Source of the DNA: a virus
Strand: one strand, 5' to 3'
DNA length: 9,584 nucleotides
UHGV virus genome: UHGV-0197445
Of the stretch, positions 1,121 through 2,197 are shown piece after piece; the first letter of the stretch is position 1; the number at the start of each line of letters is the position of its first letter. The notes under the pieces were generated by a model. That model was given only the letters and a program-made list of their open reading frames with translations. It did no database searches and had not been told where the DNA came from. The position numbers and the translations under genes were made by a program.

Positions 1121-2197
1121 ATGAATTTCTCATTAAGCGATGTTATTACGGGTTTAGTGACTGCTGTACTTACATGGATATCAGGAAGATTTTTCTCTCT
1201 CTTTAGAACAAGGCAGCTGTATTTGCTCATAGACCACCCCATGTATTATCCCATAGGTAATAGTCGTAACTTACGATATACAGTGACTGTATTTAATAAA
1301 GGAAAGGAAAAGGAAAGTAACGTAGAAATATCATTCCCACAAGCTCAATCGATCAAAGTGCTTTCATCAGATTATGAGTCTTTTTCAATTGCAAATAAAA
1401 AGCTAACAATAGATAGAATTCTCTCTGATTCACAATACTTTTTTGTGGTTGAGGTTGAAAGTCAATATAAGTATTCTGGAGACTTTTTGCCTATTATAAA
1501 GTCAGATGATAAGGATGGTCGTTGTTATACAAAACTTGCTGATGTCCCTGCCAGTGGCGCTACCTATGTAGCATGGGGCGCTGTTTTTATCTTTATGATT
1601 TTATTCTTCTTTCTTATACCGACCGTGTTTAAGAAAAGCGAGGAATTCATTAACTGGTATAACTATCATGAATTTAATGATAATGGATTTTCGTTTGATG
1701 ACTATACAAACTACGATGCTGTTGATAAATTCAAATTTAAAGGAAATGACACGCCAATATCATTAAATTCCTTTGACGTAAATGATGGTATTGCAACGTA
1801 TGCTTTTATTGTCAGGAATAATCAAATCGATAACCTAAATGTGAATATTTCTTTCATTCCAAGAGATGAAGATAGTTACACCAAGGAACACAATATTATT
1901 TTTGATAAATTTATATATTCTGACTACGATAAATACATAAAATTAAATAAATCTTTGAGCAAAAAATATTTTATCTATGAAGGAAAGCCAAGTAAATCCA
2001 TCATACCTTCAATGCAAAGTAAAAAAATAGAAATAAGTCGAAAAGTCACTCCTGGTATGAGCATGCAAGACTTTAATATCAAGTTCCGCTTAAAACTAGA
2101 GGGTTCTGAAAAATATAGAGACACTGTGATAATATTTAGCTCTCAAAAAAATAAGGAGGTAAATACCATTCTTTCCAGTTCATTCAAATCAGATTGA
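1121..2197 (+). CDS. AT-rich two-TM membrane protein of unknown function; candidate phage accessory/cargo gene (possible superinfection-exclusion or defence function)
   Basis: 358-aa ORF. There is an N-terminal hydrophobic helix (about aa 8-28) and a second strongly hydrophobic helix (about aa 150-172, AWGAVFIFMILFFFLIPTVF). The protein is rich in K/N/I/F/Y/D and the DNA is clearly more AT-rich than the rest of the window. A weak internal repeat is visible: Y.V.V.N then NVEISFP versus Y.F.V.N then NVNISFIP. The stop codon is at 2195-2197, directly abutting the dif-like site. Confidence 0.6.
   Translation: MNFSLSDVITGLVTAVLTWISGRFFSLFRTRQLYLLIDHPMYYPIGNSRNLRYTVTVFNKGKEKESNVEISFPQAQSIKVLSSDYESFSIANKKLTIDRILSDSQYFFVVEVESQYKYSGDFLPIIKSDDKDGRCYTKLADVPASGATYVAWGAVFIFMILFFFLIPTVFKKSEEFINWYNYHEFNDNGFSFDDYTNYDAVDKFKFKGNDTPISLNSFDVNDGIATYAFIVRNNQIDNLNVNISFIPRDEDSYTKEHNIIFDKFIYSDYDKYIKLNKSLSKKYFIYEGKPSKSIIPSMQSKKIEISRKVTPGMSMQDFNIKFRLKLEGSEKYRDTVIIFSSQKNKEVNTILSSSFKSD

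Follow-up and report, generated by a model that had tools for sequence, protein, structure and literature searches.

A cargo gene exchanged between a hairpin and the attachment site of dif-integrating enterobacterial inoviruses, with a possible role in superinfection exclusion

Enterobacterial inoviruses that integrate at dif possess a sharply bounded slot in which whole cassettes are swapped, including cassettes for Shedu and SIR2 proteins, and this finding extends the accessory hotspot of Vibrio inoviruses to the Enterobacterales. The window analysed here, a 9,584-nucleotide (nt) stretch of DNA (UHGV virus genome UHGV-0197445), represents a single unit of an Escherichia coli filamentous phage that integrates at dif and is of the CUS-1/YpfPhi/UTI89 type, and its slot is filled by a single gene at positions 1121–2197, hereafter the cargo gene. 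The gene encodes a protein of 358 amino acids (aa) and is identical (100% identity) to the RefSeq coding sequence WP_025693587.1. By association, we tentatively read its product as an inner-membrane protein that may protect the lysogen or the carrier element from incoming mobile DNA, most likely by superinfection exclusion. The kind of locus is already known from Vibrio; what is new is the protein family, the enterobacterial layout and the occurrence of phage-less cassettes at dif.

Cassette exchange between the hairpin and attP

Homology between the window and phages of the same backbone that contain other cargo is lost at position 991 or 1022 and regained at 2193–2194. On this backbone, which is 98–100% identical throughout the comparison, the slot is refilled by a 369-aa allele of the same family, or by gene pairs encoding proteins of 155 and 123 aa, 91 and 159 aa, or 264 and 88 aa. 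A preliminary description of the window had supposed the gene to be variable cargo among related inoviruses, and this was borne out by the two inspected genomes without a family member, APEC E19019 and MS8345, both of which hold an unrelated gene pair in the slot. A different backbone, with another replication protein, single-stranded DNA-binding protein, pIII and regulator, has only positions 974–2309 in common with the window, at 99.3% identity. The identical gene, or alleles with 25–31% identity, fill this slot in four different backbones of inoviruses; those with divergent alleles include UTI89 (369-aa allele, WP_001555908.1) and a Citrobacter phage. Because synonymous sites are saturated between alleles of the family while the backbones that carry them are 98–100% identical, the alleles were swapped in and did not evolve in place.

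The left border of the slot is a hairpin element with an invariant 33-nt core, the first stem of which shows compensatory changes around a GAAA loop. This element was found in 27 IMG/VR inovirus contigs; UTI89-type phages retain the first stem only, and in other backbones homology to the window begins at 974. Within the phage intergenic region, the hairpin probably acts in cis as an origin or a packaging element. Its first stem on the viral strand (CCGYGG, with a C/T-only loop) resembles the packaging-signal consensus reported for Xanthomonas integrative inoviruses (bioRxiv 10.1101/2023.12.30.573655), and by synteny with If1 the element could be a complementary-strand origin.

The right border is a CTX-type attP, the viral strand of which folds as a forked hairpin, unpaired in its central part (dG = −33.8 kcal/mol, z = −8.6), and the prophage–host junction lies at approximately position 2290, beside hipA. 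Among IMG/VR inoviruses the slot measures 402–2,401 nt and holds one to three genes. It is invariably situated between the hairpin core and dif-like site 1, and the stop codon of the family gene falls within approximately 30 nt of this site in all contexts. The interval from the hairpin core to the dif-like site can serve as a mining rule for candidate defence genes. For the cargo gene, the template is the strand present in the viral single-stranded DNA, and the hairpin, followed along the direction in which the complementary strand is synthesized, immediately precedes the gene. On entry, the cargo could thus be copied or expressed before any other gene.

In 82 of 5,426 complete E. coli genomes, 80% or more of the window was present, and the best matches listed covered 87–88% of it. 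Counted by genomes, the E. coli slot held the pair of 155 and 123 aa in 95, the pair of 91 and 159 aa in 28, the UTI89-type allele in 11, genes for an MtlR-like and a DUF2971 protein in seven, and the 358-aa allele in seven. The last seven apparently represent one lineage, and the three listed genomes with the MtlR-like and DUF2971 genes also carry the 358-aa gene. At the locus of E. coli EC4 (L002, 1–13270), two tandem prophages have the same backbone, one with the MtlR-like and DUF2971 genes and the other with the 358-aa gene; between such neighbours, homologous recombination would easily exchange cargo. The pair of 264 and 88 aa occupies the slot of a Klebsiella plasmid prophage. In the IMG/VR contig IMGVR_UViG_644736397_000001 (L046), the slot contains Shedu SduA (PADLOC, 2e-102; Pfam SduA_C, 2e-22) followed by a DUF4427 protein. 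Two further occupants are defence candidates, namely, the DUF2971 protein, which corresponds to PDC-S31 (PADLOC, 4e-48), and a SIR2 protein, which corresponds to PDC-S25 (2e-82). This catalogue is small, comprising about 15 slot types, and the other occupants have no recognizable family. A protein of 114–122 aa recurs beside differing cargo in three slots (L033, L034 and L035), and the L033 copy, the sole copy scanned, matched HTH_23; this protein may be a cassette-borne regulator.

The module was also detected outside phages, and cassettes pile up at dif without a phage. An IncFII-type plasmid contig carries an 89% identical copy that spans exactly 974–2265, Enterobacter IncF plasmids carry a 364-aa member together with a 76-aa gene beside a plasmid Xer-like site, and a 369-aa member is present in a chromosome with both flanks and without phage genes. 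In a Serratia chromosome (L064, 9055–12760), two phage-less mini-elements lie in tandem at dif, with a family gene as the cargo of one and Shedu SduA as the cargo of the other. Each consists of a junction, a flank of 460–840 nt, a hairpin, one cargo gene and a complete attP, and their non-cargo parts are 99.4–99.7% identical. These mini-elements are either relics or satellite-like Xer-dependent elements. At two E. coli loci (L004 and L008, 12370–13842), a SIR2_2 gene (PDC-S25, ThsA-like) is enclosed by its own hairpin and dif-like site 1 between the prophage attP and hipA, and resembles an orphaned cargo module. The E. coli orphan modules match the Serratia mini-elements only in the hairpin and attP, so that no shared mini-element backbone emerged. 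A Pseudomonas member is flanked by toxin–antitoxin pairs, HicAB on one side and an MqsA-like pair on the other, and has a GC content of 0.38 versus 0.57 for its locus.

As dif units with cis-acting sites and one cargo gene in tandem, the mini-elements recall Ff miniphages, the RS1/TLC satellites of Vibrio cholerae and IMEX. The phage-less dif units are perhaps no more than deletion relics.

The cargo gene and its protein family

Pairwise comparison between alleles gave ratios of non-synonymous to synonymous substitution rates (dN/dS) of 0.05–0.21 across every domain, indicating purifying selection, and this analysis ruled out a non-functional open reading frame (ORF) at 1121–2197. The gene has a GC content of 0.320 (0.295 at third codon positions) versus 0.428 for the rest of the window, so that the impression of an AT-rich gene unlike the rest of the element was confirmed on calculation; the commonest residues of the protein are S, I, K, F, D, N, L and Y. 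Recent acquisition had been suggested on these grounds, and this suggestion holds in part. The swap of the cassette into the window backbone is recent, but the AT-richness is old: the GC content was 0.31–0.34 in all ten family genes measured, and in conjunction with the synonymous saturation this indicates that low GC content is an old trait of the family and no sign of a recent donor.

As the preliminary description stated, the cargo gene is co-oriented with the helix-turn-helix (HTH) regulator and the 140-aa membrane protein, and it lies on the repressor side, beside the attachment site. A single repressor-side operon, as then envisaged, is plausible only, with no terminator predicted between the genes but no clear promoter either. 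Moreover, the 140-aa protein (phrog_4174) is specific to the window backbone and absent from the other three backbones that carry family genes. Judged from these sequences, the cargo gene is independent of it. A phrog_4174 homologue sits inside the slot, beyond the hairpin, in two IMG/VR inoviruses (loci L042 and L058), and the 140-aa protein may itself be older cargo.

An AlphaFold model of the 358-aa protein, built from an alignment of 12 sequences (mean pLDDT 79.6), comprised a helix at residues 5–29, a beta-sandwich at 33–136, a second helix at 146–169 and a beta-rich domain at 190–357 with a two-helix insert. Modelled alone, the C-terminal domain reached a pLDDT of 84 and a pTM of 0.82. 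In the 19-residue Kyte–Doolittle mean, the second transmembrane (TM) helix, TM2, was strong (2.44), while the first, TM1, was borderline in the 358-aa allele (1.49) and reached 1.9–2.2 in the 369-aa alleles. Hydropathy and the model agree on two hydrophobic helices, each followed by a beta-rich segment, as had been described from the sequence.

The two similar motifs noted earlier are both present, at residues 53–72 (YTVTVFNKGKEKESNVEISF) and 227–245 (YAFIVRNNQIDNLNVNISF), and both fall on a strand-turn-strand element of the model. A loosened form of the motif was found twice in none of 20,000 shuffled sequences, with a pattern that was picked after the data had been seen. The internal duplication that these motifs had hinted at was not supported at the sequence level, however: self-alignment of the two domains was not significant (local z = 1.27), and profile–profile alignment with hhalign gave a probability of 0.3%. 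The two halves are alike only in the short local motif and in the immunoglobulin-like (Ig-like) fold class.

The most conserved segment of the family is the juxtamembrane F..FR.RQLY, in which R31, Q32, L33 and Y34 are invariant and the entropy is lowest (0.43). Invariant residues of domain 1 are N59, G61, K62, K64, E65, R99, P124, K127, S128, D130 and G133. Domain 2 diverges faster than domain 1, with identities between allele groups of 15–25% versus 29–38%. In the 12 aligned members, domain 1 contains zero to three cysteines and domain 2 contains none.

The preliminary description recognized no known family, and database searches led to the same result: Pfam, NCBIfam, PADLOC and PDB sequence profiles gave nothing specific, and the sole family matched, PHROG 17621, which aligned over the full length (E = 7.4e-49, residues 4–351 against profile positions 4–360 of 363), has no assigned function. 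No relative of the 358-aa protein was detected by PDB sequence profile search or by tblastn of deposited phage genomes, and an Rfam scan of the whole window returned nothing specific. Below the gathering threshold, Pfam DUF11 (PF01345) matched residues 49–110 (17.3 versus 24.6 bits, E = 0.006). Weak DUF11 matches to domain 1 were found in nine of the 12 members (best E = 0.0016), and the best match in the BFVD collection of viral folds was a tandem DUF11 protein, aligned over both domains. The pattern Y.V.V.N.G...NV.I is typical of the strand-turn-strand element of DUF11 and CARDB repeats. As a rule, DUF11 proteins are long, secreted and built of repeats, and are not two-TM membrane proteins.

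After divergent seeds had been added, the family comprised approximately 56 clusters at 90% identity from Enterobacterales and Pseudomonas, and an exhaustive hidden Markov model (HMM) search reached 211 representative clusters, 33 of them full length. A wider set of proteins of approximately 300–340 aa has only TM1, domain 1, TM2 and the start of domain 2 in common. The longer relatives from the HMM search had no informative fused domain, and the cluster names were all ‘hypothetical protein’. Truncated gene copies and fusions to proteins with HTH_23/28/29-type domains occur in Salmonella and Enterobacter (P0004, P0005, P0007 and P0008), and some family copies may be decaying.

Table 1. Positions of the cargo gene, its slot and neighbouring features in the window
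Feature	Position	Strand	Basis
Cargo gene, 358 aa + stop, member of PHROG 17621	1121..2197	+	ORF; RefSeq WP_025693587.1; dN/dS; GC 0.320
N-terminal hydrophobic helix (TM1), aa 5–29, then conserved F..FR.RQLY segment	1133..1207	+	AlphaFold; hydropathy
Domain 1, aa 33–136, Ig-like beta-sandwich, distantly DUF11-like	1217..1528	+	AlphaFold; invariant residues
Second TM helix (TM2), aa 146–170	1556..1630	+	Hydropathy 2.44; AlphaFold helix 146–169
Domain 2, aa 171–358, second Ig-like sandwich with two-helix insert aa 250–282	1631..2194	+	AlphaFold
Variable cargo slot	1023..2192	.	Unrelated genes replace it in otherwise 98–100% identical phages
Conserved hairpin element, left slot border	975..1029	.	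98% identical to part of If1 major intergenic region
CTX-type attP, right slot border	2196..2288	.	Sequence, dif-like pattern matches
dif-like site 1	2196–2222	.	Overlaps cargo gene stop codon
attP GC hairpin	2224–2254	.	Between two dif-like sites
Inverted dif-like site 2	2256–2288	.	Exact XerC arm
HTH regulator	1–447	+	ORF, family search
140-aa multi-TM membrane protein (phrog_4174)	547–969	+	ORF, PHROG match

Possible functions of the cargo protein

The protective reading rests on the architecture of the protein, the position of its gene, the behaviour of the cassette and its neighbours. The gene lies within tandem prophage units, and its two predicted TM helices suggest a membrane-anchored prophage protein. 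Prophage exclusion genes, for example those for lactococcal Sie2009 and P22 SieA, typically lie in such a place, between the repressor and the att site. Exclusion proteins such as these, HK97 gp15 and PfsE of Pf are small or mid-size, membrane-anchored products of prophage-expressed and often AT-rich ‘morons’ near the repressor or att site. A role in exclusion or abortive infection, as the preliminary description suggested, also gains indirect support because the slot elsewhere carries the validated defence nuclease Shedu, DUF2971/PDC-S31 and SIR2/PDC-S25.

In the mechanism that we propose, the protein would block the entry of other phages, perhaps of other filamentous phages. In every member, three lysine or arginine residues directly follow TM1 and zero or one precedes it, and as a working model we take the N-terminus to lie outside, domain 1 to be cytoplasmic and domain 2 to be periplasmic. 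Periplasmic domain 2 might then make contact with a component of the incoming phage or with the entry machinery of the host, which for inoviruses comprises pili and TolQRA; the constant core of the protein would consist of domain 1 together with the conserved juxtamembrane motif. We assume that the prophage expresses the gene, whether through transcription running on from the repressor side or through a weak promoter belonging to the gene.

Several observations weigh against this proposal. The charges flanking TM2 are ambiguous for the proposed topology, and DUF11-like domains are mostly extracellular, which disagrees with a cytoplasmic domain 1. Three fold searches returned generic Ig-like sandwiches only. 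PADLOC-DB 2.0.0 contained no match to the window protein, to the UTI89 allele or to any of nine other relatives, and the TerY match of one relative (P0036) was at chance level (E = 0.036). Guilt by association is weak because only a minority of the genes in hotspots of this type have a known function. Pairwise dN/dS gave no sign of diversifying selection, and no convincing promoter was identified upstream of the cargo gene, with no common sigma-70 consensus among the nine alleles scanned. Likewise, no sequence or fold similarity to Sie2009, SieA, HK97 gp15 or PfsE was found, and to our knowledge none of these four proteins has two Ig-like domains with a TM helix between them.

A more far-reaching proposal, which we regard as rather doubtful, is that the family constitutes a new single-gene inner-membrane system of defence or exclusion, with an Ig-like domain on each side of the membrane, that spreads as a hairpin–cargo–attP cassette among inoviruses, plasmids and chromosomal dif, the phage-less mini-elements possibly being helper-mobilized satellites. 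If true, it would represent a new type of single-gene membrane defence, unlike the catalogued systems. Its carriers are prophages of E. coli strains of clinical importance, among them the model uropathogen UTI89, and plasmids of Enterobacter.

The protein could instead act after entry, as an abortive-infection sensor-effector, although we consider this unlikely. An Ig-like domain would sense a phage product, the TM helices would oligomerize and permeabilize the inner membrane, and the infected cell would die. A single-gene cassette with two TM helices is compatible with such a role, and the association with hotspots and defence islands is equal to that under superinfection exclusion. TM segments are common effectors in abortive-infection systems, and for this reason the Vibrio study screened hotspot genes for them (PMC12715192). 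On the other hand, the 358-aa protein has just two TM helices, no recognizable toxic or pore-forming domain and no PADLOC match, and neither a partner nor an antitoxin is visible in the window. Compared with an abortive-infection effector, we find an entry block somewhat more likely.

That the gene serves host fitness or the envelope apart from phage defence, be it at the surface, in biofilm or virulence, or as immunity to colicins or type VI effectors, seems improbable. In that case, its carriage would reflect a benefit to the lysogen within its host or in competition. Ig-like and DUF11-like folds are indeed common among surface and adhesion proteins, an allele is carried by the uropathogen UTI89, and type VI secretion system genes lie near the family gene in Proteus and Serratia. 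With two TM anchors and without a signal peptide or outer-membrane targeting, however, surface exposure of the protein is unlikely, and the recognizable slot neighbours are defence genes and not virulence genes. Toxins such as TDH are also carried by the Vibrio hotspots, and CUS-1 and YpfPhi have been tied to modest fitness effects in vivo, but the reported CUS-1 effect mapped to the pIII-like puvA and not to a gene of the 358-aa type (PMC4266046). The candidate assignment of CUS-1 puvA as the cargo gene was rejected, since puvA is a pIII-like virion gene (PMC4266046).

We give still less credence to a function for the element itself, in virion assembly or secretion, in lysogeny or in a helper–satellite relation of the mini-elements. 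In its favour, the gene is always flanked by the cis-acting hairpin and attP, is found both in four inovirus backbones and in mini-elements reduced to these sites, and encodes an inner-membrane protein, as inovirus assembly genes do. Against it, the gene is dispensable, with most copies of the same phage lacking it, it is interchangeable with genes for nucleases and SIR2 proteins, and distant members such as that of Pseudomonas are far from any phage or dif site.

Comparison with known loci and other features of the window

In two studies, dif-integrating Vibrio inoviruses are described as having an accessory hotspot, or ‘pHVR’, that is enriched in defence genes and whose cargo is kept in degraded relics (PMC11630473, PMC12715192). 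The slot identified here is similar in being an att-proximal locus of small filamentous prophages, with cargo that differs between close relatives and is mostly unannotated. Further points of likeness to the described pHVR, in a slot sample that is small, are the presence of defence genes, exchange with plasmids and chromosomes, and retention in relics. The two differ in their hosts, which are Enterobacterales here, and in their layout: the Vibrio CTX-I pHVR, as described there, lies between zot and xafT, whereas the slot is located on the repressor side, from the hairpin to attP, across attP from the secretin and zot genes. The 358-aa protein family is not mentioned in the available portions of either study (PMC11630473, PMC12715192), and a literature search returned no publication that deals with either the enterobacterial slot or the family.

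Within the lineage of the window phage itself, the att-adjacent ORFs beside the repressor are reported to be unrelated between CUS-1 (orf1 and orf1a) and YpfPhi (YPO2271 and YPO2272) and to have no known function (PMC4266046). The window phage and CUS-1/YpfPhi belong to one lineage and have these ORFs in the same repressor-adjacent position. As UTI89, a relative of the CUS-1 host, has the 369-aa allele there, we infer that orf1 or orf1a of CUS-1 is this allele. The window allele differs from the UTI89-type 369-aa alleles in its length of 358 aa and is 25–31% identical to them.

The minus strand of the window encodes a replication protein (Phage_CRI and G2P_X_C), a G5P-like single-stranded DNA-binding protein and small coat proteins, and further a 570-aa pIII-like protein, a DUF2523 protein, Zot and a secretin. 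On a metagenome scaffold, copies of the phage lie in tandem beside hipA and repeat every 9,584 nt exactly, at 99.97–100% identity. A 67-aa ORF at 2214–2417, which extends across attP, is probably spurious.

Finally, an attP-like segment of approximately 95 nt in window 2185–2430 matched approximately 400 enterobacterial plasmids, most of them conjugative. A plasmid element was considered as the source of these matches and rejected, as both plasmids inspected contained integrated inovirus prophages instead. Such prophages, some of them in tandem, were observed inside large plasmids of Klebsiella (NZ_CP132684.1, L060) and Klebsiella sp. LY (L061). Plasmid-integrated inoviruses probably account for the approximately 400 plasmid matches to the attP-like segment.

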